Source of the DNA: Escherichia phage UE-S5a
Strand: one strand, 5' to 3'
DNA: 64,000 bases
Sequence record: PP175015.1
The notes under the pieces were generated by a model. That model did not search any database. It saw only the letters and a list, made by a program, of their open reading frames with translations, and had not been told where the DNA came from. Below are positions 16,811 through 58,005 of the stretch, one piece after another. Position numbers and translations under genes: made by a program. How positions within the stretch are numbered: the first letter of the stretch is position 1; every line of letters begins with the position of its first letter.

Positions 16811-16873
16811 TACACTGGCTTACTGTAGAGTAAGCTTTCCATATACGATATAAGTTTGAACAGGAAACATGCT

Positions 16874-19800
16874 ATGTCAACATTTGACCGTCTGGCAGGT
16901 TTCGCAGACAGCATCACTAATGCTAAGCAAGTCGATGTCTCTACTGCAACCTCTCAGAAGCAAGCTGCACAAGGGCAAAGCCCTTTCCAATTAACCCCAG
17001 AGAATGCTTACAATCTCCAAACTGGTCGTGTAGGTAATCTTGGAATCGGTGCATTCGAACCAGGTTCACTTCAGGCAGATTTCACTCAAGCCTCCCCATT
17101 AGAAATTCTTAATAAATACGGTAATGAGCAAGGTCTACAGATTCTTAATAGCCGGGCTAATGCTGCTGATGCTGTACGTCAGGACTTATCTAAACAACGT
17201 ACTAACGCAGAAGCATTTGGTGATACTCTTTCTGGTGTTGGTCTTGGTGTTGCTAATACCCTTGGGGGCATTGCTGCTCTTGGCACAGGTCTGGTCAATG
17301 ATAATGCCGGGGCATCCATTGCTTCCGGTATGGATTGGCTGAATGAAGGGGTACACAATCTACAGTCTGATGCTCTGAATGCTACCCGTAAGGTTGTTCA
17401 GAATCAGAACCAGATTTCTGCACAAAAGAACCAGAGACTCTACGAAGAAGATATTAAAAATGGTGAGAACGATTTAGTTGCCTCCCTGTCTCGTATTGGT
17501 CGTGATGCTTTTGATTCTGTTGCTAATACACTTAATAATGGTATGGCTGCTACTGATGGGCTGAGTGAAGGTGTTGGTTCTCTCTTTACCGGTGGTCCAT
17601 TAATTCGTGGTGTATCTGCACTCGGTAAAGTAATGGTAGGTGGTGATAAAGCTGTTAAGGGTATTACCTTAGCTGCTGAGTTAGGTTCACGTCCTGCACA
17701 GGTTGCATTGTCTGCTGGTCGTGTTGCTGCACCTGCTATTGCAATTGGTGGTATGGAAGCTGGTGGTGCATACCAACAGACTGCTTCCGAAATCATGAAG
17801 ATGTCCCATCAAGAATTGGCAAGTAAGTCTCCTGTTTATCAACAGCATATCGCTGATGGTTTATCTCCTGATGAAGCACGTCGCCAAACTGCATCTGAAA
17901 CGGGTATCATTGCTGCTGGCTTAACTGCTCCGGTTGCTGCTGCTACTGGTCCTCTGGTATCCAAATTTGAACTTAACCCACTTAAGGTAGGTTCGCTGGC
18001 TGGTGCTGGTTCTAACATGCTACGTGAAACAGTAGAAGAAGGTATTCAGTCTGGTACAAGTCAGTTTGCACAGAACAAGGCAATTCAGGGTAATGTAGAT
18101 GCTAAGCGTGATTTGCTTAAAGGTGTCGGTGAGCAAGCAGGTCTTGGTGCACTCTACGGCTTCGGTAGTGCTGGTGTTGCTCAGGCTCCAGGTACAACTG
18201 TTAAAGCTGTTGGTGCTTCTGCTGGGCCTGCTTTACGTACTACTCTGGCTGGTGCTTCTCTGGTTGGTAGTGCATTAGCAAAAGCTGCCTCTCCTATTAC
18301 TAACATCCTGGTTCAGCGTGGCGAAGAAGTTGCTAAGCGTAATGAACAAGCTTCCCCTGTATCTGATGCTACGGTTAATGCTGCTGCACAAGAAGCTACT
18401 GCTCAAGCAGAACAAGCACAAGCAACTGTACAAGAAGCAGTAGATGCAATGGATATTTCTCCTGAAGATAAAGCTGCTGCTACTCAGTATGCTGCTGACT
18501 TAACTCAGGCAATGAAATTTGACCCAGTAGAACTGGAACAAGCTAACCCAGCAATCCGTGAAGCTGTTTCTGGTTCCACTAACCGTGTTGAAGCTATTCA
18601 GAAGATGGCTGACCTGGTTAATACTGCCGAAGACCCTAACGTTCAAATGGAAGCTGCAATCCAGATGTATGACAACATCATGTCTATGGATAGCTTCATT
18701 AACCGTGATCCTGGTGCTTTAGCTAATCTGGAACAGGGTTCTCCTGCTGCTAATATTGTTGACCAGTTCTCCGGCCTGATGGCTAACGTTCAGAATACAC
18801 CAAAGGTACTTCGTGCATTCCGTGCCATCCATTCTATGATTCAGGAACAGGCTGAAGCAGGTAAACTGAAAGCTACCGAAGAAGCTAACCAAGCCCAAGC
18901 AAACAACATTGCTATGGCTGCTGATATGTCTCCAGAAGTACTGGATGCAGACTCAGTGAACATGGTTCTGAAACATGCAAGTGAAGGTAAGATTACACTG
19001 GGGAATCGTCAGCGTGCTGCCCTGCAATCTGCTGCTGCTCTATTGCAAGGAGCACGAGAATTTGACGCTAAAGCAGAAGAACTAGGCTTACGTCCTCAAG
19101 ACATTGTTAGTAAACAGATTAAAACCGACGAGTCTCGTTCTAATGAAGGTCAGTACTCTGCGTTGCAACATGCTAAACGCATTCGTTCTGCGTACAACTC
19201 TGGTAACTTCGATTTGGCTTCCGCTTACCTCGACGACTTTATGAAGTTCGCCCAGCACATGCAGAATAAGGTCGGAGCGTTGAATGAGCATCTGATTTCT
19301 GGGAATGCGGATAAGAATAAGTCTGTCCATTATCAGGCTCTTACTCCCTCCCGTGAATGGGTACGTAGTCGTACTGGTCTTGGTGTTAATCCGTATGATA
19401 CCAAGTCGGTTAAGTTTGCCCAGCAAGTAGGACTGGAGGCCAAAACCGTAGCTGATATTGCTAACGCACTTGCTACGGCTTACCCGGAGCTTAATGTTTC
19501 TCATGTGAAGGTTACTCCATTAGATTCACGTCTGGACAAGCCTGCTGCCCAGGTAGTTAAAGAGTTCCGTCAAGGTGGTCTTGATGCCACTCAGTCTCAA
19601 CAGACCAATGAACCAGTGAATCAGGTTGATGAAACTCCTGCACCAGCGCAAGAGACTACTACTACTGTACAGCCTAAAGCTAAACCAGTGGTAGAAAATA
19701 AGACTGTTCCTGTTAAAGAGGCTAGTTCAAAAGCAGAAGAAGTCTCTACTACTAAGTCTGAAACAGTAGATGCTACCCTCACCAATGAGGATACCACTCA

Positions 19801-22800
19801 AAAAGTAGCTGAAACTAAAACGGAAATGGAAACAGTTTTCCCTGTCTATAACAATGACAAGACACCGAACCAGTTCCTGAAATCATTTACCCTGCCGGAA
19901 GAACCTAAGTCTCGCACCATTGGTTCTGAATCCCCTTTGACTGATATTAAGCAAGCACTGTCTTCTACTGCACGCTTTGAAGCATTCACTCAAAAAGAAA
20001 ATAACGCTCTCACAAGTGATGTGATTAAGCGTTATCAGGACTTAATGGGCTTTGGTGAAACTCTGAAGACTACTCTGTCTGATCGTCTGGCTAAGTTTCT
20101 TGCTAATAAGAACGTTGGTAAACGCTTTGCAGAAGGCACAGAGGCTAACCGTTGGGTAGGTGGTAAGTTACTTAATATCGTAGAGAAAGACGGAGACACC
20201 TTTAAGTTCAATGACCAGTTGTTAGAGACTGCTGTACTTGCTGGTCTGCAATGGCGACTGACTGCTACACAGAATGCTGCTGTTAAAGACATGAAAGATG
20301 TAGCTGCTATTACTGGAGTAGAAGCATCCTTGTTACCTGAAGGTATCCTGGCTGAATTTGAGAATGCTCAGACTCTGGTTGAAGCTACTAACTCACTGGC
20401 TCAAAAGATTGAATCTTACTGGGGATTGAATCGTAATCCTAATGCACCACTGGGTTATACCAAAGGTATTCCAATGGCAATGGCTACAGAGATTCTGTCT
20501 TCTCTCATTGAGATGGGTGAAGTTAAAGAGTCTATGCTTGATGTGTCTGAGATTGACCCAGACTCTAATAAGACCGTCGGTCTGTATACCATTGAGAAGC
20601 TGGATGATAACGATGCCATTAACAAGTTCCCTACTGCTATCGAGGAAGCTGTTCTCGTAGAACCAGAAGAGAAAATGTACTTTGGTGATGATATTCCTTC
20701 CGTGGCTCAAACTCAGTTACGTAACCCTGCTGTTAAGAATACCCCAGAGCAGAAAGCTGCTCTTAAAGCAGAACAGGCTACCGAGTTCCGTGTACACATG
20801 CCGATGGTTAACTTCTATGAAGCATTAGGTCGTGACAACATTCTGGAACTGATGGGTGCTGGTACTCTTAATCCTGAACTGCTGAACGTGAACACTGCTA
20901 AGTCACTGGAGGGTAAAAACCTGTCAGTGTCTATGGCATATGATTCCCTGTTCGGTGTAATCAACCAGTTACAGGAACAGGAGAATGGTCTGGATACGCC
21001 TATTCACTATGGTTACAACATGACCCGTGTAGGTCGTATGCAGATGTTAGGTAAGAACAACCCACAGTCCAGCAAGCTGGTTCGTGAAGCAATTCTGCCA
21101 ACCTTCTCTACTATCGACTTAAGTAATGAAAACAGTCAGACGTTCTCTGATTTCCAGTTAGGTCTGTCTCAGGCATTAGGTATCAAGGTTCATAATATGT
21201 CCCGTGAAGCTATGTCTGAAAAACTGACCAAAGCTCTGGAAGGTAATTTGAAACCTGCTGTTGATATGATGGTTGAGTTTGATAAGTCCGGGCACTTACC
21301 AGCCGATGCAGTAGATATTCTTAAGACATCTCTGGGTGGTGATAAATCATTCGTAGCTCTTATGGCTCTTATGGAGTATGCCCGTTACCTGAACAGTGAT
21401 GACCGTGCCAACTTTAATACCCCACTGTACGTTGAAGCCGATGGTGTAACCAACGGACCAATCAACGCAATGGTATTAATGACTGGTGGTAAGTTCACTT
21501 CAGACTGGATTAAGAATACTGCTAAAGGTGGTCTGTTCTTCGGTAAAGCTGGTAAGACTATGAATGAACATCGTTCACAGGATGACAGTGTTGACCTGTA
21601 TGAAGCATCTACCAATGGTCTGCAACAAGCACTTAATGAGTTACGTACTACTTACCGTAACAACGTTCCGGTTATGAACCAAATGAATCATCTTCAGAAG
21701 TTAATGGACCTGTTTATTAAAGACTTTAACCTGAATGAAGACGGTACTCTGGACCTGAAACGTGGTATCGCTAAAAACCCACTGACCATTACCATCTATG
21801 GTTCAGGTGCTCGTGGTATTGCTGGCAAGATGGTTAGTGCAATTACTGACACCATCTATGAACGATTCAGTGATGTTCTGCAAGCTCGTGCTGCTGACCC
21901 TAGCATTTCCCCAGCTATGGCAATGTTTGGTAAGGAGGCTGCGTCTGAGGCTGATGCTCAGGCTATGCTGGATACTTTCCTTACTTCTATGGAAGCACTG
22001 ACTGGTAATGTTCCAGTTATGCGTAAAGGTGAATTGTCTATTCAACAGGTAGAAGGTGCTCTGACTGGTAAGTTAGACCCTCAGAAGTTTACCGTATCGG
22101 GTAATGCCCTGAAGAACTTACAAGAGAACATGCTTCACCTGTTCGTTGAACCAATGCGTACTGGTATCCGGAATACTGTTGGGGAAGGTCTGATGCATTC
22201 TACTGAGAACTTGCAGAAGGCTACCCAGATTCAGTCTTTGGTTCTACAAGACATGTTCCAACAAGCAGTACAGGCTAAGCTGGCAGAAAAAGAAAAAGAC
22301 CCAACCTGGAAGAAGGGTGATTTCTTAACACAGAAAGAACTGAATGAAATTCAGGAATCATTGTCTCCACTGGCTCCAATGATTGAGACTGGTTCACAGA
22401 CTTTCTATATTGCTGGTAGTGAGAATACTGATGTTGCTAACCAGGTACTGGCTACCAACTTAGATGACCGTATGCGTGTGCCAATGAGCATCTATGCTCC
22501 TTCTCAGGCAGGCGTTGCAGGTATTCCATTTATGACCATTGGCACTGGTGATGGCATGATGATGCAGACCCTTTCTACTATGAAAGGTGCTCCGAAGAAT
22601 ACCCTGAAAATCTTTGATGGTATGAACATTGGTATCGACAACATCACTGATGCAAGTCGTAAAGCTAACGAGGCTGTATACACTTCCTGGCAGGGTAACC
22701 CTATCAAGAATGTTTATGAGTCTTTTACTAAGTTCATGAAGAACGTAGACTTCAGCAAACTATCGGATGAAACCAAACAGGCTATCGCTAAATCTGCTCT

Positions 22801-25800
22801 GGAATATGACCAGCGTGAAGGTGCTACCGATGACCTGTTACGTGTTGGTGCTGAACAGATTGAACGTAACCTGCGTAATATTGCTCTGGGTGTAGATATT
22901 CGTCACAAAGTAATGAACCAGGTACAGACTACTGTTGACCAGATGGCTGCTGTTGGTGCTCCTTATGTGAACAACGGTAAAATCTCTCTGGAAGGTCTGA
23001 CCGTAGACCAACAAGTAGCTAAGCTAAATGAACTGTTCGATGCTGAATTAAACAAACGTCGTGATGCAGTACGTGCTGCTAAAGTAGAACCAGTGAAAGA
23101 AGTGCCAGCAATGGAACAGGTTGGTCGTGTACTGAAGTCTGGTGTACGCCTACTGTCTAATACTGCTATCTCTAAGCTGGCTAAAGAGATGTCTCCGGAA
23201 CAGCAAGCAGTACTGAAAGAAGTACAGAAATCCCTTGCTGCTAAAGACTATAAGGTTGTTTACGGTACACCTTCCCAACTGGATGCTTATGCTATTGAGA
23301 AGAATATTACTCGCCCAGCACCAGAAGATATTGAAGCTGCTGAAGCTGGTAATGCGTATGGTTGGACTAACTTTGAAGATAAGACCATCTACTTAGTTAC
23401 CCCTTCCTTAGAGACTCTGGTTCATGAATTGGTGCATGCTTCTACTTTTGAATCTGTACTGGCTCACTATGAGGGTACTCCTAATGAAGCGGTCCAGAAC
23501 ATTGAAGACCTGATGAACCAGTTCCGTGCTCTGGATGTTAAGGATGAATCCCCGGCAGTTCGGGAAGCATATGCAGATGCTCTTAATACTATTAACGGTC
23601 ATTTATCTAATGGCTTTATTGAGCCAGCAATGGCTAAAGCTGCTGCACTGAATGAGTACATGGCATGGGGTTTAACCAACCGTGAACTGATTAGTAAGCA
23701 GAAGAAAACCACTGCACTTAAGACTATGGTTCAGGCTGTATATGAAGCAATTAAACGTCTGGTATTCGGGCGTAAGAAAGCACCAGCTAATGCAGATGAT
23801 ATGTTCTCTGGCTTACTGTTTAACTCGTCCGTAGTTATGCGTGGGCAAGCTCCTACTGCTGCTGTAGCCAAAGATACTACTCTGTTCCATAACAAAACGT
23901 ATGGTGACAATACTCGTCTGGAAGAGCTAGGGAAAACCTTCGATAAACTGATTACTGACTACATTGGTTCTGAACCAGTACAGCAAGTAATTCGTAAAGG
24001 TAAGTTCTCTGATGCAGTGGTTAATGCGACTAAAGTAACTCGTGATGTTCAGGCTCATGGCTTCACTATGAATATGCAGGAACAACGTCTCTTTACTAAC
24101 ATTGTTGCTGCTCTGGCTACTGAGGCTGCTATTAATCCTGCTGCTCTGGCTCGTGCGCAGGAATACTACACACATGTTACTAAGAACCTGACCGTTGAGT
24201 CATTCATGGCTGACCCAGATAGTACTAACCCTGCTGACCGTTACTATGCACAGCAGAAGTTCGATACCATCATGGGTGCTAACAACATTGAGTTTGATTC
24301 ACAAGGTCGTTCCTCCTTACTGCCTACCTTTATTGGTCTGGCGATGGTAAGTGAAGAGGTACGTAAAGTGCTGGCTGATATTCCAGTTATGAAAGTAGAC
24401 AAGAAATCTGGCAATACCGCTGATGCAATGCTGACTAACATCGGTACTGCTGCAATGGCTAGTCTGAATGCTCGTGTAGCAGGAGATACTAAAGCTACCA
24501 ACGTACAGGAAGGTATGGATGCACTGGCTCAGACAATCATGCAGACCAGTCTTAATGCACAATCCTTCTATGATTCCGTTGCTACTCCTACGGGTAATGC
24601 TATTGATCGTGCTAACCAGTATCTGGTGGACTCTATTGATGTACTGTCTACCCGTGCTTTAGAAGGTGCTCGTGAAGTTGCAGCTAATACCAAGAACCCG
24701 TTGGTTAAAGGTGCTGCCCATGCTGCACAATTAATAGCTGCTATTGCTACAGAGAAGAATGGTGCAATCGTAGCCGAAGGTGTTATGGCTGCAATGAACC
24801 AAGGTAAAGTATGGCAACCCTTTCACGATCTGGTTAATGACTTAACTGGTCGTACTAAGAGTAATGCTTCTGTATATGATTTGATTAAGGCAGTGCGTGC
24901 CCAGGTACAGGCTGACCGTCAACAGTTCCGTGAACATCTGCCCACCACTATCGCATCTAAGTTCAGCCGTAAGCTGACTAATGATGAGTGGAAAGCAATG
25001 CATACCGGTATGGGTAAAACCGACTTAGCTGTTCTGCGTGACACTATGTCTCTGGGTGAAATTCGTGACTTGCTGACTGACCAAAAGATTGTTGACCGTG
25101 AAGTGAATAAGCTGGAAGCAGATTTGCAGAAACAAGCAGGACGTAACTGGCCTTTGATTAGCCGTAAATCTAAGCAACTGGCTCAGTACATGATTAATGG
25201 CACAGTTGGTAATAACTTGCTGCGTAATGCTACTGCAATCTCTCGTATGCTGGGTGAACGACAGGCTGCACGTTCTACTGTAGACGTAGCTCAACTGGAT
25301 AAACTGATTACTCTGTATGCACTGGAAGCAATGAGTAAGACTGACCGTGAGATGTTATCTTCACTGGCTCAATCAGAAGCTGATGGGATTGATTTTGCTA
25401 CTTCTTATCTGGTTGGACAGCGTAAAGATGAAATGGCTAAAGCCAAATCTGACATGCGTGCAACCCTGAACCAGTACAAAGGGTATATTCCTGGTGAGAC
25501 TAAACAGGGTGTTAACTTGATTGTTGCTGAAGATAGTCAGTTTGCTGATTTGATTGAGAAGTCCTATGTACGTCTGGGTACTTATCAGGGTAGCTCTGCT
25601 AATCGTGGTCCAGCACGTAGCTACTACTTTGCACCGGTACAGGCACAGGCTCCATTCTCGCAAGGTATCTTACAGAACGTTCGCAATACTGCTGGTGGTG
25701 TAGACCTTGGTACAGGCTTTACGATGGGTACAATGGTAGCTGGTCGTATCACTGACAAGCCTTCTGTAGACCGTATCACTAAAGCACTGGCTCGCGGTGA

Positions 25801-27226
25801 ACGTGGTAATGAACCACTGCTGCCTGTATATGATGATAAAGGCAATGTGGTTGCTTATGAGCAATCTATTGACCCTAACATGCTGAAGCACATTGAGGGT
25901 GAGAACCATCTCGCTCGTGCAATCGGTGTATGGCGTGGTCGTCAGGTAGAGGAAGCTAAGGCTCAGCGTTTCAACGATATGCTGATTGAGAACCTGCATA
26001 GCATGTATAAAAACGACATTAAAATGTCTGCCTCTAACAAGTCACAGTACGTTAACCTTCTTGGTTCTAAACTGGACCCAGTAACTGCTGATGCCCTTAA
26101 GCTGATGAACAGTGAAACTCGTCAGAAAGCAGAAAGTCTGTTTGGTCCTGGTGAGTTGTGGGTACGTCGTGACATGCTGAATGATGCACTGGGCTATCGT
26201 GCAGCTTCCGTAGGTGATGCCTGGTCTGGCAATTCTCGTTGGTCACCAGAAACACTGGATACCTTCAAGAAAGCTATGTTGGGTGTATTCGGCAACCGTG
26301 CTTATAAGTATGTAATGGGTGGTGAGAACCTGGTTCAAAACTTAGTTAAAGAAGCTAAGACTCTGATTGTAGTTAAATCAGTAGTTGTTCCTGCTGTTAA
26401 CTTCCTGGCTAACCTTTACCAGATGGTTGGTCGTGGTGTACCTGTTAAGAACATTGCTAAGAGCATTCCACAGAAGACTGCTGAGATTAACCAGTACCTG
26501 AAATCTCGTCTGCGTCAGGTAGATGCAGAAGCAGAATTACGTGCAGCTACTAACCCGAACCAGATTCGTAAGCTTAAGGCTGAAATTCAGTCCATCACTG
26601 ATAGTCATAAGCGTATGAGTATCTGGCCTCTGTTAGAAGCTGGTGAGTTTTCTTCAATTGCAGATGCTGGTATTGGACGAGATGACATCCTGATTACTGA
26701 AGGTAAACTTCACGAATACATGGATAAACTGGTTGATAAGTTACCTAAGTCTGTACGTAATGCTGGACGTTATGCCCTTATCACCAAGGATACTGCTTTA
26801 TTCCAGGGTATCCAGAAGACGGTTGAGTACTCTGACTTTATTGCTAAAGCAATCATCTATGATGATTTGACTCAGCGTAAAGGTAAGACTCGTGAAGAAG
26901 CACTTGGACGTGTAACGGAAGAGTTCATTAACTATGACCGTCTGCCTGGTCGCTTCCGTGGGTATATGGAAAGTGTTGGTCTTATGTGGTTCTATAACTT
27001 TAAGATTCGTTCTGCAAAAATTGCAGTATCCATGATTCGTAACAACCCGGTACACGCAGCTATGGCTATGTTGGCTCCAACTCCTACCATGTTTGGTAAT
27101 GTTGGTTTACCTATTCAGGACAACATCTTCAGTATTGCTGCACAAGGCAATCTCGGTTACTCCTGGGGCTTCGGTCAGGGACTTCGTGCCCATAACCTTA
27201 ACCCTTGGCTCAATCTAGCTAACTAA
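16874..27226 (+). CDS. Virion-encapsidated RNA polymerase (vRNAP), N4 gp50-like
   Basis: About 3450 aa (track ORF starts on TTG at 16856; ATG at 16874 has AGGAAA RBS); central region carries T7-like polymerase motifs: PLYVEADGVTNGP (motif A-like), RGIAKNPLTITIYGSGARG (motif B, R..K..YG), IFDGMNIG (motif C). Confidence 0.9.
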   Translation: MSTFDRLAGFADSITNAKQVDVSTATSQKQAAQGQSPFQLTPENAYNLQTGRVGNLGIGAFEPGSLQADFTQASPLEILNKYGNEQGLQILNSRANAADAVRQDLSKQRTNAEAFGDTLSGVGLGVANTLGGIAALGTGLVNDNAGASIASGMDWLNEGVHNLQSDALNATRKVVQNQNQISAQKNQRLYEEDIKNGENDLVASLSRIGRDAFDSVANTLNNGMAATDGLSEGVGSLFTGGPLIRGVSALGKVMVGGDKAVKGITLAAELGSRPAQVALSAGRVAAPAIAIGGMEAGGAYQQTASEIMKMSHQELASKSPVYQQHIADGLSPDEARRQTASETGIIAAGLTAPVAAATGPLVSKFELNPLKVGSLAGAGSNMLRETVEEGIQSGTSQFAQNKAIQGNVDAKRDLLKGVGEQAGLGALYGFGSAGVAQAPGTTVKAVGASAGPALRTTLAGASLVGSALAKAASPITNILVQRGEEVAKRNEQASPVSDATVNAAAQEATAQAEQAQATVQEAVDAMDISPEDKAAATQYAADLTQAMKFDPVELEQANPAIREAVSGSTNRVEAIQKMADLVNTAEDPNVQMEAAIQMYDNIMSMDSFINRDPGALANLEQGSPAANIVDQFSGLMANVQNTPKVLRAFRAIHSMIQEQAEAGKLKATEEANQAQANNIAMAADMSPEVLDADSVNMVLKHASEGKITLGNRQRAALQSAAALLQGAREFDAKAEELGLRPQDIVSKQIKTDESRSNEGQYSALQHAKRIRSAYNSGNFDLASAYLDDFMKFAQHMQNKVGALNEHLISGNADKNKSVHYQALTPSREWVRSRTGLGVNPYDTKSVKFAQQVGLEAKTVADIANALATAYPELNVSHVKVTPLDSRLDKPAAQVVKEFRQGGLDATQSQQTNEPVNQVDETPAPAQETTTTVQPKAKPVVENKTVPVKEASSKAEEVSTTKSETVDATLTNEDTTQKVAETKTEMETVFPVYNNDKTPNQFLKSFTLPEEPKSRTIGSESPLTDIKQALSSTARFEAFTQKENNALTSDVIKRYQDLMGFGETLKTTLSDRLAKFLANKNVGKRFAEGTEANRWVGGKLLNIVEKDGDTFKFNDQLLETAVLAGLQWRLTATQNAAVKDMKDVAAITGVEASLLPEGILAEFENAQTLVEATNSLAQKIESYWGLNRNPNAPLGYTKGIPMAMATEILSSLIEMGEVKESMLDVSEIDPDSNKTVGLYTIEKLDDNDAINKFPTAIEEAVLVEPEEKMYFGDDIPSVAQTQLRNPAVKNTPEQKAALKAEQATEFRVHMPMVNFYEALGRDNILELMGAGTLNPELLNVNTAKSLEGKNLSVSMAYDSLFGVINQLQEQENGLDTPIHYGYNMTRVGRMQMLGKNNPQSSKLVREAILPTFSTIDLSNENSQTFSDFQLGLSQALGIKVHNMSREAMSEKLTKALEGNLKPAVDMMVEFDKSGHLPADAVDILKTSLGGDKSFVALMALMEYARYLNSDDRANFNTPLYVEADGVTNGPINAMVLMTGGKFTSDWIKNTAKGGLFFGKAGKTMNEHRSQDDSVDLYEASTNGLQQALNELRTTYRNNVPVMNQMNHLQKLMDLFIKDFNLNEDGTLDLKRGIAKNPLTITIYGSGARGIAGKMVSAITDTIYERFSDVLQARAADPSISPAMAMFGKEAASEADAQAMLDTFLTSMEALTGNVPVMRKGELSIQQVEGALTGKLDPQKFTVSGNALKNLQENMLHLFVEPMRTGIRNTVGEGLMHSTENLQKATQIQSLVLQDMFQQAVQAKLAEKEKDPTWKKGDFLTQKELNEIQESLSPLAPMIETGSQTFYIAGSENTDVANQVLATNLDDRMRVPMSIYAPSQAGVAGIPFMTIGTGDGMMMQTLSTMKGAPKNTLKIFDGMNIGIDNITDASRKANEAVYTSWQGNPIKNVYESFTKFMKNVDFSKLSDETKQAIAKSALEYDQREGATDDLLRVGAEQIERNLRNIALGVDIRHKVMNQVQTTVDQMAAVGAPYVNNGKISLEGLTVDQQVAKLNELFDAELNKRRDAVRAAKVEPVKEVPAMEQVGRVLKSGVRLLSNTAISKLAKEMSPEQQAVLKEVQKSLAAKDYKVVYGTPSQLDAYAIEKNITRPAPEDIEAAEAGNAYGWTNFEDKTIYLVTPSLETLVHELVHASTFESVLAHYEGTPNEAVQNIEDLMNQFRALDVKDESPAVREAYADALNTINGHLSNGFIEPAMAKAAALNEYMAWGLTNRELISKQKKTTALKTMVQAVYEAIKRLVFGRKKAPANADDMFSGLLFNSSVVMRGQAPTAAVAKDTTLFHNKTYGDNTRLEELGKTFDKLITDYIGSEPVQQVIRKGKFSDAVVNATKVTRDVQAHGFTMNMQEQRLFTNIVAALATEAAINPAALARAQEYYTHVTKNLTVESFMADPDSTNPADRYYAQQKFDTIMGANNIEFDSQGRSSLLPTFIGLAMVSEEVRKVLADIPVMKVDKKSGNTADAMLTNIGTAAMASLNARVAGDTKATNVQEGMDALAQTIMQTSLNAQSFYDSVATPTGNAIDRANQYLVDSIDVLSTRALEGAREVAANTKNPLVKGAAHAAQLIAAIATEKNGAIVAEGVMAAMNQGKVWQPFHDLVNDLTGRTKSNASVYDLIKAVRAQVQADRQQFREHLPTTIASKFSRKLTNDEWKAMHTGMGKTDLAVLRDTMSLGEIRDLLTDQKIVDREVNKLEADLQKQAGRNWPLISRKSKQLAQYMINGTVGNNLLRNATAISRMLGERQAARSTVDVAQLDKLITLYALEAMSKTDREMLSSLAQSEADGIDFATSYLVGQRKDEMAKAKSDMRATLNQYKGYIPGETKQGVNLIVAEDSQFADLIEKSYVRLGTYQGSSANRGPARSYYFAPVQAQAPFSQGILQNVRNTAGGVDLGTGFTMGTMVAGRITDKPSVDRITKALARGERGNEPLLPVYDDKGNVVAYEQSIDPNMLKHIEGENHLARAIGVWRGRQVEEAKAQRFNDMLIENLHSMYKNDIKMSASNKSQYVNLLGSKLDPVTADALKLMNSETRQKAESLFGPGELWVRRDMLNDALGYRAASVGDAWSGNSRWSPETLDTFKKAMLGVFGNRAYKYVMGGENLVQNLVKEAKTLIVVKSVVVPAVNFLANLYQMVGRGVPVKNIAKSIPQKTAEINQYLKSRLRQVDAEAELRAATNPNQIRKLKAEIQSITDSHKRMSIWPLLEAGEFSSIADAGIGRDDILITEGKLHEYMDKLVDKLPKSVRNAGRYALITKDTALFQGIQKTVEYSDFIAKAIIYDDLTQRKGKTREEALGRVTEEFINYDRLPGRFRGYMESVGLMWFYNFKIRSAKIAVSMIRNNPVHAAMAMLAPTPTMFGNVGLPIQDNIFSIAAQGNLGYSWGFGQGLRAHNLNPWLNLAN

Positions 27227-27263: not shown

Positions 27264-27764
27264 CTAAACTAACACCCAGTCTTCAGCTAATATATCTGAT
27301 TGGGATGGGACCCAAGGCATAAACTGGTCATCAACAGTTTTGATTCCTAACCATGGACGAGGTTTCAATTCATCAGCAAGTCCTGGACGCTCTAAGCTAC
27401 TGCTATTCCATTCTTGAGCAGCAACGTACTCAATGTACATTCCTTTACCATTCCAGCCTTTACGGGCTAGTTTGAAGCCGGATTTGAGAAGCTCTACTGC
27501 ATGACCAAAGGTGCAACCTTTTTCTACGTCATGGTACGCAGTTTCAAATGCAGATTTAGGTGACCAGCTAATATAGCCACGGAACTGAGGATGGTTAGAC
27601 TTAGAGTCTGGGTACTCTACTAAGTAACCTTCTTCTAATGGGTCTTCATTAGCAGGTACATCCCAGCCACGAAGTTTGCAGTATGTTTCTTTGTTCATTC
27701 GGAAACCATTTACACACTTGGTTCCGATATAATTGGTAAAATGGACTTTAATTTCTTCTGACAT
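27264..27764 (-). CDS. DUF2829-domain protein (Tad2-like anti-Thoeris candidate) with N-terminal extension
   Basis: Track start is GTG; ATG 27764 has GAGG RBS; C-terminal half LARKGWNGKGMYIEY...MPWVPSQSDILAEDWVLV matches the DUF2829 pattern as I recall it. Confidence 0.5.
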   Translation of the reverse strand: MSEEIKVHFTNYIGTKCVNGFRMNKETYCKLRGWDVPANEDPLEEGYLVEYPDSKSNHPQFRGYISWSPKSAFETAYHDVEKGCTFGHAVELLKSGFKLARKGWNGKGMYIEYVAAQEWNSSSLERPGLADELKPRPWLGIKTVDDQFMPWVPSQSDILAEDWVLV

Positions 27765-27882
27765 AACTACCTCAAATGAGAAAGCCCTCACTAGGAGGGC
27801 TTGTTTTGTTTTGGCTTCATGAGCCTTACCACATGTCGGGTAGTTCAGTACCTTTCGGTAAAAACTACCTTACACTTTTGAA

Positions 27883-28263
27883 TCAGATTGTACAACCACC
27901 ACCATCACAGGTGTTGTTTTCTGCAAAGGAAGCCAGAGCTTTAGCAGTCTCTTCTTTCTCATGCAGTGCCTGACGTAGCAGGTAACCTTCTAATTCCCAA
28001 ATCTTATTGAATGCATTTTCATATGCATACTGACGGCCTTTTTGCTCATCATAGATAGCTGGGTCAACACAGGCAGATACACCTTCAACTTTGAAGCCAT
28101 TTTCCAAGATGATAATGCAATAGGTTATCAGACCCAGGTTAGCCAAATCATCTGCCGGGAGTGCAGATGGATCAACAAATGCAGACTTCACTGCATCAGC
28201 TCCATTAAAATAGTAGACGCTCTTAATCTTAGCTTCGATTGCTTCTTTACTTACTGTTGCCAT
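27883..28263 (-). CDS. Phage gp49/gene-66 family protein (N4 gp49-like)
   Basis: Start moved to second ATG (MATVSKEAIEAK) with GAGG RBS; family call from recalled similarity to PF13876-type proteins. Confidence 0.45.
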   Translation of the reverse strand: MATVSKEAIEAKIKSVYYFNGADAVKSAFVDPSALPADDLANLGLITYCIIILENGFKVEGVSACVDPAIYDEQKGRQYAYENAFNKIWELEGYLLRQALHEKEETAKALASFAENNTCDGGGCTI

Positions 28264-28405
28264 TATTAGCCTCATAGAGTGGTTTGAGTTTGTACTTAAA
28301 CATGACTGCGTTGTTATAGGCTACGCTACCTGCAAACACCAAAGACTTGCGTCCTCGATTATCCGTTACCTCATAGGCATACGGGGTTGAGATTAGGTCA
28401 ATCAT
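28247..28405 (-). CDS. Small hypothetical protein
   Basis: Track ORF starts on TTG; only an internal ATG is available; weak. Confidence 0.2.
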   Translation of the reverse strand: MIDLISTPYAYEVTDNRGRKSLVFAGSVAYNNAVMFKYKLKPLYEANNGNSK

Positions 28406-28472: not shown

Positions 28473-28713
28473 TACTATTTACCCATAGCTGGGAGGCTTT
28501 TGGTTCTTACCACGAAGACAGTCCACGCTGACTAGACTTGGGATTGATAGTCCCGTTCCTGTGGTAATTACTCAGGCTAGGATTTAAGGAGTTCCTATTC
28601 TCCAGCGAAATTCCCGTCGAGGGGAATAACAATACAATAGCAGTCACTGGACTGTCTTACCAGTGTTGTCTTTAGAGTGCGATGCAATCAGGACTATGTT
28701 ACTGCTGAATGGG

Positions 28714-28787
28714 TGTCCACTACTGGATTTGAACCAGTGACTTTCCGATTATTAGTCGGTTGCTTTCCCCGTCTAAGCTAAGCGGAC
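28714..28787 (-). tRNA. tRNA; anticodon loop reads CUAAUAA, i.e. anticodon AAU (formally Ile, unusual A34)
   Basis: Hand fold: acceptor GTCCGCT/AGTGGAC (one G-U), D-stem GCTT/AAGC, anticodon stem CCGA/TCGG, T-arm ACTGG-TTCAAAT-CCAGT; no encoded CCA. Confidence 0.55.
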
Positions 28788-28793
28788 ATAATA

Positions 28794-28869
28794 TGGTTAC
28801 CCGGACAGGATTCGAACCTGCGTCCTAGTTGGTTTACTAGTGGGGCTTTACCACTAAGCCTACCGGGTA
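28794..28869 (-). tRNA. tRNA with encoded CCA; anticodon arm non-canonical by hand fold (identity unresolved)
   Basis: Perfect acceptor TACCCGG/CCGGGTA, discriminator A, CCA encoded; D-stem GGCT/AGCC; T-arm GCAGG-TTCGAAT-CCTGT; anticodon region folds as CTAGT/ACTAG with a 6-nt loop. Confidence 0.5.
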
Positions 28870-29170
28870 TTAATAGGTGAGTCATGCCAGACTCTAACTG
28901 GCTCCTTCTTCGCAATCCTTACATACCCCTACATAATTATTGCGTTAAGCTTTTTTGTTTAAGTTTAAGTGAAGGCGTTCTTGCTGACTCATAATTGGGT
29001 TGGGCGTTTGACGAATGACTAGTTCGTTACTACCCGTTTGCCATAAGTACCTGGCGACTTTGGTTTGAGGTGGGAGTCCGAGTCCTGTACAGCCTTACCG
29101 TTCACACATTGGCAGCGTATCTAGAGTTGCACTTCCGGCAACTGGATTTAACTGTTACACCTCAAATAGG

Positions 29171-29245
29171 CAGTGGGGGATGGAATCGAACCATCAGTAT
29201 TAAGTCTTATTCGTGCACCAAGCACGCTAGTAGATTACTCTACCG
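29171..29245 (-). tRNA. tRNA-like element (canonical T-arm, acceptor pairing not resolved)
   Basis: T-arm GATGG-TTCGATT-CCATC present in minus sense; no matching 5' acceptor found by hand within 75 nt. Confidence 0.3.
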
Positions 29246-29315
29246 GAGGGAATCGAACCCTATCTACTTCACCAGACCCACCATAATTCTTCCAATTTAG
29301 AGTAGCATTGTCACG
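29238..29315 (-). tRNA. tRNA-like element (T-arm motif only)
   Basis: AGGG-TTCGATT-CCCT in minus sense; cloverleaf not resolved. Confidence 0.25.
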
Positions 29316-29367
29316 GTGGGTGCTTTAAATGCCGGGAAACATTTAAATATACAATGCTACTTTGAAT

Positions 29368-29445
29368 TGGTTATCAGTGAAGGATTCGAACCTCCGGTTG
29401 GAGTCTATAGCTTACCGCAGCAGCCCTCCAATCTAGCGGTGTCAC
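29368..29445 (-). tRNA. tRNA-like element with encoded CCA; possible long or interrupted tRNA
   Basis: CCA + discriminator + acceptor 3' strand ACTGATA + T-arm GGAGG-TTCGAAT-CCTTC; exact complement of the acceptor (TATCAGT) only found about 120 nt away at 29485-29491. Confidence 0.3.
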
Positions 29446-29493
29446 ACTTAGTCCAAACTTGAACATGTCAAGCCATCTCGTGCAACTGATAAT

Positions 29494-29560
29494 TGGTTCC
29501 GGCGTCTGGACTCGAACCAGAACACTCATGCCGTGCACGACACTAGTACCTACACCGGAA
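29494..29560 (-). tRNA. Short tRNA-like element with encoded CCA
   Basis: CCA, acceptor TCCGGTG/CGCCGGA, T-arm TCTGG-TTCGAGT-CCAGA; only about 66 nt, too short for standard D + anticodon arms. Confidence 0.3.
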
Positions 29561-29626
29561 TTAATTGCCAGGGATTCCACCTGGCTCCATCTGTTTTTAT
29601 AGTCACTCAGATATCGTCTGGACTGT

Positions 29627-29704
29627 AGGCATGGGTGGGAATCGAACCCACAAACCATTCAGCACTGTAGCCTCACGCTCTACCTATTTGAGCTATCACA
29701 TACC
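29627..29704 (-). tRNA. tRNA-like element
   Basis: T-arm GTGGG-TTCGATT-CCCAC, D-arm-like GCTC-AAATAGGTA-GAGC, acceptor GGTATGT/CCATGCC (6/7 pairs); anticodon arm not resolved. Confidence 0.35.
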
Positions 29705-30384
29705 ATTGATTAACTCCCCGTTTCTAATACATGGACGGGGACACTCCACGGTCGTTTGATAATCAGGACGACTCACTCCTGACTGACGCTTGGCTTATTA
29801 GGCTGCCATCAGAACAACATCATCGTTTGCATTTATGTTATTGGTTCGTTTCTAAAAAACCGCATAATCGCTTACGAAAACTATCAAAGAGTACACTAGC
29901 TCTGGGCCACGCTTGTGGACATCGGCCTACCTTCCACAGCTAATCAACTAATGCACTCACTGATAGCCCATAATAGGGGGGAGGGGACGAATCCTCCCTT
30001 TATACCCTATATTGCATGTAAGATCTAACAGTTCGATGTTGTAGGTAGCTAGGCTATCCGACATTTAACCCAGCCCATATAGGGGCTTATGTGATTAGAA
30101 TGCTCAACATTGAGCGGTTAGTTTGATAAGGGATCTGAAGCCTTATCCTAAAGATACTAACCTTTGGGATATAGCCTAAGATTCAGAAATGGCCCCTATA
30201 GGGAGAGGCCATTGATTAACCCGAATGTTGCTTTACATTTGCTGTGATAACCAATTCTTAAAATAGTCTGTCTGACGGATGGGGGTCCACCCCTAGCGTC
30301 AGTGCCATACGGCAAAGATTAAGTTAAGAAAGGTTATGATAGGAGTTCCTATCTCAAAGGATTCTAACAGAACCCTTCACGATA

Positions 30385-30555
30385 TTAACTACTCTTTTTT
30401 AATGCCTTTACTTCACCATCTTTATACCAAGCATATGGTATTAAGATTTTGCAACCTTCTGAATCAATGTGGAATGCTTTGTTCCCTTCAACAGGTTCTC
30501 CACCCACGAAAGAACTAACCTTTCCATTGAGCCAGTGAATAGTAAATTTGTTCAT
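30385..30555 (-). CDS. Small hypothetical protein (about 56 aa), below ORF-track cutoff
   Basis: ATG with AGGG RBS; MNKFTIHWLNGKVSSFVGGEPVEGNKAFHIDSEGCKILIPYAWYKDGEVKALKKSS; coordinates hand-counted. Confidence 0.3.
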   Translation of the reverse strand: MNKFTIHWLNGKVSSFVGGEPVEGNKAFHIDSEGCKILIPYAWYKDGEVKALKKSS

Positions 30556-56234: not shown

Positions 56235-57452
56235 TTAACTTAATGCATAATCTGTTTCTAGAATGTCTTGCCAGAGGCTGTCATCCAGCTTACCAGCAGA
56301 GAACTCTTGTCCCAGTACTTGAGACAGAATGAAGCCCAGTAAGTCACTCTTAGCAATGTCAGACAGAATCTGATTGTACTGACGACGCAGGTCATTACCA
56401 TAGTTAGGGTGGCAACGGAAGCAATCATGTACAGTCATTACAGGGAATGGTTTCTTAGGCATAGTGTCGATCATATCTGCTACTACTTGACGGTCTACCA
56501 ATGCAATAGTATTCGGGTCAAGGAAGTCTAGGATAGACAGCGACAGGAATCCTGACCTTTCATAATGATTCCAGATTTCCATAGTCTTCTCTTGGTTCCC
56601 CTCAATAACGGGGTATTCACTTGGCCCGATATCGCACAGTTCCCGTACATAGGCAACCAGTTTAGGGTCGAAGTTACAACGACGTAGCATCTCACGTACT
56701 ACCATCCCATCAATAGAGTGAGTGATGTTAGCAGAGAGCATACGGGTCTTCTCTTCAGTACCCTGAACCATACGAGTGATGTCAAATGGTTTACCCAAGA
56801 AGTTAACAGTCTGTACTTCAAGAACCATGACTTTAATGACAGCATGGAAGTTGTCAGGGAGTACCCATATGTAACGGTTAGCATCCGGGTTACCACATTG
56901 CAGTAAGAACTTGTTAAGTGCCCAAGGACCACTTGCAACTGTTTCCATTACATTTTCAAAAGTCTTGAGACGGATACCTTCCCCGAATACTTCTTTAGGT
57001 TTGGCTTCTGAACCGTAGAATGCAGTCATAACTGCCTGCTTGGTATCACTACGTTTAATACGGGATGCTTCACCAAGGATGTCCAGCATCTTGTGATATA
57101 TAACTGTATAAGCATCACGTCGTAATGGCTTACCATTCTCTCCCATGTAATTAACTACGTTACACAGTTCAGCAGCAGAGCGGTCACCAGTCAGGCAGGC
57201 CAGTAACTGCAAGCCTGATGATGTAGCATCCAGGGCTACGGCATATCCGATAGGCTTACCAGCTTTCATATCTTTCCATGCGTTTACACCAGCATAGAAC
57301 AGTGCAGATTCCTCAGCTTCATCTACCAGATTAAGCAAGTTAGCTTCATTCTCATCGAACCAAGCAATACGCTCATCCCAGGTCTTTTTATCCAGACCAT
57401 AGTTATTGGCGATGTCTACTTTCAGGTATTCTTTAGCGGTTAACAGTTGCAT
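56235..57452 (-). CDS. Phage RNA polymerase II catalytic subunit (T7-like, N4 gp16-like)
   Basis: Start moved to ATG 57452 (AAGGAA RBS); T7 RNAP motifs: ALDATSSGLQ (A), RSDTKQAVMTAFYGS (B), VHDCF (C). Confidence 0.75.
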   Translation of the reverse strand: MQLLTAKEYLKVDIANNYGLDKKTWDERIAWFDENEANLLNLVDEAEESALFYAGVNAWKDMKAGKPIGYAVALDATSSGLQLLACLTGDRSAAELCNVVNYMGENGKPLRRDAYTVIYHKMLDILGEASRIKRSDTKQAVMTAFYGSEAKPKEVFGEGIRLKTFENVMETVASGPWALNKFLLQCGNPDANRYIWVLPDNFHAVIKVMVLEVQTVNFLGKPFDITRMVQGTEEKTRMLSANITHSIDGMVVREMLRRCNFDPKLVAYVRELCDIGPSEYPVIEGNQEKTMEIWNHYERSGFLSLSILDFLDPNTIALVDRQVVADMIDTMPKKPFPVMTVHDCFRCHPNYGNDLRRQYNQILSDIAKSDLLGFILSQVLGQEFSAGKLDDSLWQDILETDYALS

Positions 57453-57498
57453 TTTATGTTCCTTAGCGTCTGAGCCATTTGGCTCGCATAGTGGGTAG

Positions 57499-58005
57499 TT
57501 ATTGACCGTGACGGTTAGTATAGCCAGCACCATTCTGGTTCAAGGCTTCTAACATGTCGGCTCGTGCATCACATGCTTGTTGGAATGCGAACTCGTAGCC
57601 GTATTTCTTAACTGAGAATACTTTACACCTCTGTTTCTTTGTGATGTTGTCCGTACATGTAGCACGCCAGAATAACCCCTTTGGTGAATCCCATAGAGAT
57701 ACACCAGTTACCCCAGATTTATTGTCTGAACGTTTAGTAGAGTTACGCAGGTTGACTACAATGGGAACACATCGCAAGTTACACCAGCGGCAGTCCGTTC
57801 TGATACCGTTGATGTGGTCAATTGTATAACCAGCAGGGATAGATCTATGCTTCATTTCCCACAACCAACGGTGAAGGTATAAGATTTTATTTCCACGAGA
57901 GATGCGAATGTACCCAGTGGCACTATTCGCTGCCTCCGGTGGATGGGCTACAGCAAGTTCATCAACTGACTTGTTCCAGTAGCCCATTGGCATACGCTCT
58001 TTCAT
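57499..58005 (-). CDS. HNH-AP2 homing endonuclease inserted between the RNAP II subunit genes
   Basis: HNH core YTIDHINGIRTDCRWCNLR; AP2 domain NKSGVTGVSLWDSPKGLFWRATC...KYGYEFAFQQACDARADMLEAL; paralog of 52458-52934. Confidence 0.8.
   Translation of the reverse strand: MKERMPMGYWNKSVDELAVAHPPEAANSATGYIRISRGNKILYLHRWLWEMKHRSIPAGYTIDHINGIRTDCRWCNLRCVPIVVNLRNSTKRSDNKSGVTGVSLWDSPKGLFWRATCTDNITKKQRCKVFSVKKYGYEFAFQQACDARADMLEALNQNGAGYTNRHGQ

Follow-up and report, generated by a model that had tools for sequence, protein, structure and literature searches.

Palindromes in the Gamaleyavirus Escherichia phage UE-S5a as probable stems of a minus-strand RNA array that includes a tmRNA-like tag module

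The palindromes and their setting

The DNA analysed here, a stretch of 64,000 nucleotides from Escherichia phage UE-S5a (sequence record PP175015.1; the whole stretch is referred to as the window), has 100% identity to Escherichia phage UE-M3, which belongs to Gamaleyavirus and is G7C-like and N4-like (Schitoviridae). On the plus strand, genes extend as far as that of the 3,456-amino-acid virion RNA polymerase (16856-27226), and from 27264 onward a series of open reading frames (ORFs) lies on the minus strand. Within this minus-strand block is an ORF-poor stretch (28650-30385) with a group of GC-flanked palindromes that had been flagged as possible promoters or protein-binding sites. The stretch carries a 1.7-kb array on the minus strand (about 30386 to 28710), in which a structured RNA domain, here called M1, is followed by a long hairpin (F), by a module resembling part of transfer-messenger RNA (tmRNA), here called the tag module, by aberrant tRNA-like elements and by two tRNAs. 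Both tRNAs and all genes flanking the array are on the minus strand. The modules of the array are portable RNAs that stand at the distal end of the early/middle gene block. Close relatives differ greatly in which of them they have: hairpin C of M1, the insert of F and the tag module may each be there or be missing. We consider it likely that the palindromes are double-stranded RNA stems, and not DNA signals, within the M1 domain of this array.

The initial annotation had listed four motifs, and all their strings were found on the plus strand: GCCCATAATAGGGG at 29966 (motif 1), GCCCATATAGGGGC at 30073 (motif 2), GGCCCCTATAGGGAGAGGCC at 30191 (motif 3, containing CCCTATAGGG at 30194-30203 and CTATAGGGAGA at 30196-30206) and GGGGTCCACCCC at 30282 (motif 4). 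The motifs are real: the pattern CCC[AT]{4,7}GGG occurs four times in 64 kb compared to 1.5 times expected, and three of the four occurrences fall within 29967-30203, i.e. in less than 240 bp, a clustering beyond chance. The gap was correctly described as non-coding, as no ORF of at least 40 amino acids overlaps 29944-30335 on either strand, and neither Rfam nor ARAGORN made a call in the flagged motif region. The idea of one motif family held only in part. Motifs 2, 3 and 4 are short self-contained hairpins, clamped by G+C and with loops rich in A/U, but motif 1 is not a hairpin and the family is heterogeneous. Motif 1 places a 3' strand, CCCUAU, whose partner AUAGGG lies 30 nt upstream, next to a GGGC that is not conserved and is replaced by GAGC in most relatives. 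What is conserved in the motifs are the G+C stems and not the A/T cores, the loops varying between CUAUAU, CUAAU and CUCAU and between CCCUAU, CCUAU and UCCUAU. The motifs form hairpin stems of a conserved ORF-free region, the helices of which fit the minus strand.

The structured RNA domain M1

M1 (29967..30386, minus strand) holds motifs 1-4, with motif 1 overlapping its 3' edge. It was defined from 13 distinct Gamaleyavirus copies and 13 copies from unrelated phiEco32-like podoviruses (Gordonclarkvirinae: IME267, EK010, myPSH2311, ShigP1 and metagenomic relatives). Its size is about 220-420 nt, the phiEco32-like version being without some 190 nt (30346-30154) that constitute a Gamaleyavirus-specific insert. 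Homologous blocks were found in Gamaleyavirus and Gordonclarkvirinae only, and the conserved blocks are 95-100% identical between these two lineages. M1 had no Rfam match even at E values up to 5, and no copy was present in 5,426 E. coli genomes or 72,556 plasmids; the possibility that M1 mimics a host RNA was rejected on the latter result. A 16-mer scan of metagenomes gave mainly chance matches, of which BLAST retained about a dozen loci as true M1 copies.

The proposed structure was 92.9% paired, compared to 38-48% in slid controls, and none of 500 shuffles reached this value. Several helices contain G-U pairs, which on the plus strand would turn into A-C mismatches, and for this reason we assign the RNA to the minus strand. 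A non-coding RNA had been named among the alternatives for the region, and it is this alternative that the conserved structure, the strand-specific G-U pairs and the compensatory changes support. The covariation analysis that had been suggested as a check gave a divided result: compensatory changes were found in hairpins A (two pairs), B and H0 and in a long-range AUGU/ACAU helix, to which true compensation is confined, but most pairs are invariant and the flagged hairpins nearly so.

Read from its 5' end, M1 begins with the 9-bp hairpin H0, AAGGGUUCU-GUU-AGAAUCCUU (30357..30377), which is present in both lineages and in which G-U and U-G positions have become Watson-Crick pairs in loci L197 and L208. 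In the Gamaleyavirus CU10EC, H0 has pair-breaking changes. Overlapping H0 and the 5' edge of M1 is a sequence that matches a sigma-70-like promoter and has an extended -10 (TTAATA-16-TG-TAGAAT; 30361-30388, minus strand). The phiEco32-like copies do not conserve this match, and the 5' end of M1 given here is provisional. The following hairpin A', GAUAGG-AACU-CCUAUC (30338..30353), repeats hairpin A in truncated form and lies at the left edge of the insert specific to Gamaleyavirus. The insert domain proper (30255..30330; Gamaleyaviruses only) has a stem UUCUUAA/UUAAGAA around GCC-GUAU-GGC and a two-tier hairpin, CUGACG..GGGG-UGGA-CCCC..CGUCAG, which is capped by motif 4 (30282-30293). The stems of this domain are invariant, and variation is found in the apical loop and stem (UGGA, UGGC, UAGC and GGGU-UUAU-GCCC).

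Motif 3 corresponds to hairpin P3, AUGGCCUCU-CCCUAU-AGGGGCCAU (30189..30212), which has a 9-bp stem and on the plus strand gives the T7-like string. In three of 17 tallied loci (two of the 13 aligned rows) a U-G pair of P3 is replaced by U-A, giving AGAGG; on the plus strand the U-G would be a C-A mismatch. The P3 loop is CCCUAU, CCUAU or UCCUAU. Hairpin A, GAUAAGG-CUUCAGAUC-CCUUAUC (30125..30147), differs between the lineages by its two compensatory pairs (GAUAAGG/CCUUAUC vs GAUAGGA/UCCUAUC, in 13 and 11 sequences), and its loop may pair with GAUCU at 30015-30019, a pairing that is possible in 98.5% of the cells. Hairpin B, GCUCAA-UG-UUGAGC (30102..30115), has the compensatory variant ACUCAA/UUGAGU. 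Motif 2 is hairpin C, AGCCC-CUAUAU-GGGCU (30072..30087), the stem of which is kept with the loops CUAUAU, CUAAU and CUCAU; it is absent from pSb-1-like Gamaleyaviruses. Further hairpins of the GCCC-loop-GGGC kind (GCCC-AUAA-GGGC type) occur in a second version of M1 in phiEco32-like phages.

The last element of M1 is hairpin E (29973..30010), in which AUAGGG..CCCUAU closes the G+C-rich hairpin GGGAGG-AUUCGUCC-CCUCCC and the 3' half of which is motif 1. The IME267 form, GGGAGGAUUCGUCCCCUCCC followed by CCUAUUUUAU with the U tract UUUUAU, was scored as terminator-like; in the window the U tract is interrupted (tail CCCUAUUAUGGG) and no terminator score was obtained. GOLLD and ROOL are large structured RNAs of unknown function found beside phage tRNA clusters. 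M1 resembles them as a multi-hairpin RNA in an ORF-free stretch by phage tRNA genes, and differs in having no Rfam match, in being smaller (about 220-420 nt) and in its confinement to two coliphage lineages.

The F hairpin, the tag module and the tRNA-like elements

Hairpin F (29881..29966, minus strand) directly follows E. Its 19-bp helix, with a 2x2 internal loop, is formed by 29948-29966 and 29881-29899 and frames a pseudoknot-like insert (29902-29945). The insert is a 44-nt motif, GAUUAGCUGnGGAAGGnnGGCCGAUGUCCnCAAGCGUGGCCCAG, without an Rfam match, which was also found in loci L127 (1501-1547), L149 and L150 (both near 790-840). The closing helix has an entirely different sequence and yet is complementary in Gamaleyavirus, Gordonclarkvirinae and Ackermannviridae (Kuttervirus and relatives), and stem S1 of the motif covaries (GUGGA/UCCAC, GAGGA/UCCUC, GUGAA/UUCAC). 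F is a possible RNase III processing site, judging from its sequence. Long frame hairpins of this kind, with hypervariable apical inserts and conserved or compensated stems, flank the tag module in every lineage (on both sides, for example, in L005, L009 and L063). They pair across their own inserts, some of which contain T arms. The alternative that the frame strands pair with each other to enclose the tag module, as helix 2 of tmRNA would, was rejected, because the compensated frames pair across their own insert (L063, AAGCUGCUUG/CAGGCAGCUU). In Erwinia phage Bue1 (L277, about 1690-1765) one frame insert resembles a miniature tmRNA tRNA-like domain; the sequence of its T arm is what we take to be that of E. 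coli tmRNA.

The tag module covers 29715-29881 of the window on the minus strand and was also located at L002 1201-1330, L003 1179-1370, L004 1176-1367 and L005 1197-1388. It starts with a leader (29831..29881) of the form GUUUUCGU..AGCGAUUAUGCGG..UAGAAAC..AUAAAU, nearly invariant among 79 distinct sequences. After ..CAUAAAU comes the tag frame (29795..29830), GCA AAC GAU GAU GUU GUU CUG AUG GCA GCC UAA UAA, encoding ANDDVVLMAA and two stops. An in-frame UAG lies eight codons upstream of GCA with no start codon between, so that the frame combines the features of a tmRNA tag frame, i.e. no start codon, the resume codon GCA and terminal stops. The stops belong to hairpin H5 (29783-29812), and two pseudoknots follow, PK2 (29751-29781) and PK3 (29715-29750).

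The structure was assessed on 43 distinct sequences of a related form, designated type II, and the window form retains H5, PK2 and PK3. In type II these three elements together were 95.1% paired, compared to 30-44% in slid controls, and none of 500 shuffles reached this; 12 pairs were changed on both sides (106 cells). The outer stem of H5 alternates between CUGA/UCAG and CUGG/CCAG (21 vs 22 sequences), with the inner GGC/GCC unchanged, and compensatory changes were present in both stems of each pseudoknot, of which there are two compared to the usual three. The pattern scan gave 15 tag variants, all of ten codons. Relatives found by BLAST added the tags ANDSEVLMAA (GCU AAU GAU...) and ANDNEFKVAA, and the first codons show synonymous changes. 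Rfam scored the window with the permuted tmRNA model RF04321 at 32.7 bits, below the gathering score of 47, and the other tag loci with tmRNA models at 20.8-31.2 bits, all below the gathering scores.

BLAST and the pattern scan located the tag module in 314 phage records of GenBank. Of 5426 complete E. coli genomes, 656 (about 12%) have it, in plasmids or prophages and mostly in plasmids of 90-115 kb. The carriers include unrelated phages, in which it always occupies an unannotated gap: Buchananvirus Sa179lw; the lambdoid HK633, in which it lies between Q/PR' and the holin gene; the P1-like SJ46, RCS47 and D6; the Ackermannviridae phiMAM1, SJ3 and Bue1; and several phage genomes of 45-50 kb, among others. 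Among the matches listed, it coincides with no feature or with a 'hypothetical protein', and never with an annotated RNA. Strong sigma-70-like promoters are located just upstream of it in Sa179lw and phiMAM1.

The tag module shares with tmRNAs (ssrA; RF00023 and the permuted RF04321/RF01849-51) a GCA resume codon after an A/U-rich ..UAAAU, a ten-codon tag which starts with AND or ANE and ends in small hydrophobic residues and alanine, and one or two stops in the H5 loop followed by H-type pseudoknots. It differs in having only two pseudoknots downstream where tmRNAs have three, in showing no clear PK1, in being flanked by long hairpins with hypervariable inserts, and in tags that end in MAA, VAA, AVA or MVA instead of LAA; the E. 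coli tmRNA tag is ANDENYALAA. By eye, and as a lead only, the leader also resembles what we take to be the 5' segments GGAUUCGAC and GGGAUUUGCG..AAAC of E. coli tmRNA. On sequence grounds, we favour the view that the tag module derives from tmRNA and has retained its messenger half.

Phage tmRNAs have been catalogued before, 79 sequences being counted with ARAGORN and BLAST-type tools (PMC11915505). Such a survey would miss a module that, like this one, has no recognisable tRNA-like domain. The phages named are mycobacteriophages (cluster C) and Bacillus phage G only, with no coliphage example in the text, and mycobacteriophage DS6A has a gene for the tRNA-like domain only, without a tag (PMC4131195, PMC11915505). 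The catalogued RNAs are, like the tag module, phage-borne ssrA derivatives, and DS6A is likewise a phage with half a tmRNA; unlike the tag module, they possess the tRNA-like domain, and DS6A has kept the opposite half. Nothing relevant was found in full-text literature on tag peptides, tmRNA-like phage RNAs or non-coding RNAs of phiEco32 or N4-like phages. The RNA svsR, located at the 3' end of cI, was considered and is a different RNA (PMC12803456).

The search for a tRNA-like half of the tag module included several candidates. With default settings ARAGORN reported no tRNA-like domain; the Rfam models matched the tag only, with no tRNA-like part; and the elements returned by the scan for T arms and acceptor stems were all self-contained, tRNA-like and devoid of G3:U70. 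The module could be assigned neither an acceptor stem nor a T arm nor a CCA, and the invariant AGCGAYUWUGCGG of its leader had no consistent long-range partner. With lowered thresholds ARAGORN recovered the tags, but the tRNA-like domains were placed inconsistently, even inside dmt and Q genes, and these calls were discarded. A giant tmRNA of standard order, combining UAUCAGU at 29959-29965 with a T arm and ACUGAUA-ACCA at about 29368-29395, was rejected as well: the acceptor stem covaries with a local 5' strand (UACUGGU/ACCAGUA in L097), which makes the element at 29368 a self-contained tRNA-like element. The tRNA-shaped 3' domain of the lambdoid and Sa179lw forms (GUUGUGGUG...CACCACAAC) was not accepted either, as it has no G3:U70 and no conserved NCCA and the RNA runs on to a terminator.

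Downstream of the tag module three aberrant tRNA-like elements were seen on the minus strand. Element 1 (29627-29705) has a 12-nt 'anticodon' loop and is shared with Klebsiella T4-like phages; it is annotated as tRNA-Cys here and as tRNA-Gln-CTG in a Klebsiella Jiaodavirus. Element 2 (29494-29559) has no D arm and ends in ACCA, as does the 124-nt element 3 (29368-29491). ARAGORN and Rfam (RF00005) made no call on 29368-29705, where T arms and acceptor stems are present and the middles are aberrant. The annotated coding sequence UEM3_030 ('hypothetical protein'; 29374-29580, minus strand) overlaps elements 2 and 3, and its call is probably spurious. Two tRNA genes, recognised by ARAGORN and Rfam, close the array (28710-28788 and 28794-28869, minus strand). 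One is for Ile and one has an irregular anticodon loop; for 28794-28869 ARAGORN assigns no anticodon and the record gives tRNA-OTHER. A search for known RNAs, at Rfam gathering scores and at E values up to 5, returned only the two tRNAs and the sub-threshold tag matches.

Directly downstream of the array are, on the minus strand, an N4 gp49-family ORF (27883-28275) and a Tad2-like ORF (27264-27791; Thoeris anti-defence), neighbours which suggest a hot spot of accessory or counter-defence functions at this locus. Elsewhere in the window, an HNH endonuclease ORF (HNH_3 plus AP2-like domain; 57499-58005, minus strand) is immediately upstream of the ORF with the T7-like RNA polymerase domain at 56235-57533 and overlaps its start.

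Possible function and alternative explanations

If the palindromes are RNA stems, the array would be transcribed together with, or just after, the small ORF upstream of it, and the hairpins would give M1 a compact, nuclease-resistant fold. Hairpin E would be a full terminator in the phiEco32-like phages and a leaky one in the window, so that transcription would read through to F and on to the tag module and tRNA-like genes. Host tRNA-processing enzymes, together with RNase III or RNase E acting at the long frame stems, could then separate the modules. With its resume codon and its ten-codon tag ending in MAA, VAA or AVA, compared to LAA in the host, the tag module would most likely serve in ribosome rescue. 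We infer these functions of M1 and of the tag module from sequence, and likewise that M1 is a stable RNA.

Several observations weigh against this interpretation. The folding energies do not separate the strands (z = -4.77 for minus and -4.81 for plus). The four flagged hairpins consist almost entirely of invariant pairs, and are supported by conservation and one-sided changes, not by true covariation. M1 is known from just two lineages at high identity, so that a role at the DNA level is conceivable. For the tag module, ARAGORN, Rfam and the T-arm/acceptor scan found no tRNA-like domain with a G3:U70 acceptor stem, and canonical trans-translation can therefore not be asserted. Finally, CU10EC (L146, about 1080-1190) has lost the tag frame and PK2 and keeps M1, the frame hairpin and PK3, from which the array appears to be decaying or dispensable in some relatives.

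The explanation offered initially, that the palindromes are DNA signals, either a T7-like promoter for the phage RNA polymerase II or sites for a dimeric DNA-binding protein, is in our view highly improbable. The palindromes do cluster non-randomly, and the window does, as had been stated, encode a T7-like RNA polymerase subunit (PF00940; 56235-57533, minus strand). The likeness to the T7 class III promoter is limited to CTATAGGGAGA, which is identical to positions -5 to +6 (11 of 23 positions). The 12 nt upstream of these, i.e. the specificity region from -17 to -6, are missing, and the 23-nt promoter TAATACGACTCACTATAGGGAGA had no match in 64 kb at up to three mismatches. A scan of the whole window for the 11-mer at up to one mismatch gave a single occurrence, compared to 0.99 expected by chance. 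The string lies on the plus strand, where a promoter would be read antisense to the genes and tRNAs that flank it on the minus strand. Nor is it conserved: relatives have UCUUCC, a 1-nt deletion, AGAGG or AGUGG with the 9-bp stem kept, and the palindrome cores differ both between the three motifs and between relatives. The promoters of N4 RNA polymerase II are short and A/T-rich, not of the T7 type. The T7-promoter reading thus fails. Equally improbable is that the region serves at the DNA level in some other way, be it as a replication origin, as a site for packaging or as a hairpin-type promoter used by the virion RNA polymerase. Its length without ORFs, its many inverted repeats and the equal folding of both DNA strands would suit such an element, but the same modules occur at non-homologous positions in unrelated phages (a tail-gene gap, the lambda late leader, the P1 dmt-tciA gap and tRNA regions), are in the sense orientation of adjacent tRNAs or behind their own promoters, and have strand-specific G-U pairs. 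In N4, the virion RNA polymerase uses hairpin promoters that have loops of 3 nt and lie at the early end of the genome, whereas the loops here are of 4-9 nt. For an origin of replication, which had also been proposed, no support was found.

Two further explanations accept that RNA is made. The hairpins, above all F, could mainly be processing or stability signals (for RNase III, RNase P or RNase E) for the RNAs downstream, with M1 having no function of its own. In size, the F helix of 19 bp with its small internal loop matches an RNase III substrate; comparable frames, whose apical inserts are hypervariable, border the tag module in all lineages; and the tRNAs at the end of the array need processing. 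We nevertheless regard this as rather unlikely, since in phiEco32-like phages M1 occurs alone, without the tag module, and is followed by protein genes, and since an identity of 95-100% between the M1 blocks of two unrelated lineages exceeds what a spacer or processing signal would need. It is still less probable that the region is non-functional mosaic debris from recombination among phage tRNA regions. The high variability of module content among close relatives (hairpin C, F insert, tag module) and the degenerate appearance of several tRNA-like elements would be expected of debris, but compensatory changes preserve the structures, the length, stops and end residues of the tag frame are kept through many substitutions, synonymous ones included, and the modules persist across families. 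RNA stems within a minus-strand array therefore remain our preferred interpretation, with the flagged palindromes as ordinary building blocks of a structured RNA at a locus that is not ordinary.

More tentatively, the tag module could be an 'orphan' messenger half of tmRNA with which phages re-programme ribosome rescue, M1 and F being fellow members of a portable RNA toolkit. Trans-translation is thought to rely on one host RNA, in which the tRNA-like and mRNA-like parts are covalently linked. An orphan messenger half would require a tRNA-like partner in trans, a rearranged form, or a new route of entry into stalled ribosomes. Nascent chains on broken mRNAs, which would be abundant when abortive-infection RNases fire, would then receive a phage tag (…MAA, …VAA or …AVA) and not the host degradation tag …LAA. 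The toolkit would travel together with tRNA genes and anti-defence genes.

With this analysis a false T7-promoter lead is removed and three unnamed RNA motifs, namely M1, the pseudoknot-like motif of F and the tag module, can be annotated in regions that are now blank or covered by spurious 'hypothetical protein' calls. As each predicted tag is a unique peptide for which existing proteomes can be searched, the claim is directly testable. If functional, the tag module would represent a tmRNA-like RNA without a recognisable tRNA-like half, and trans-translation would be a pathway that phages manipulate, with the manipulation extending to hundreds of enterobacterial phages and to the about 12% of complete E. 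coli genomes that have a copy.

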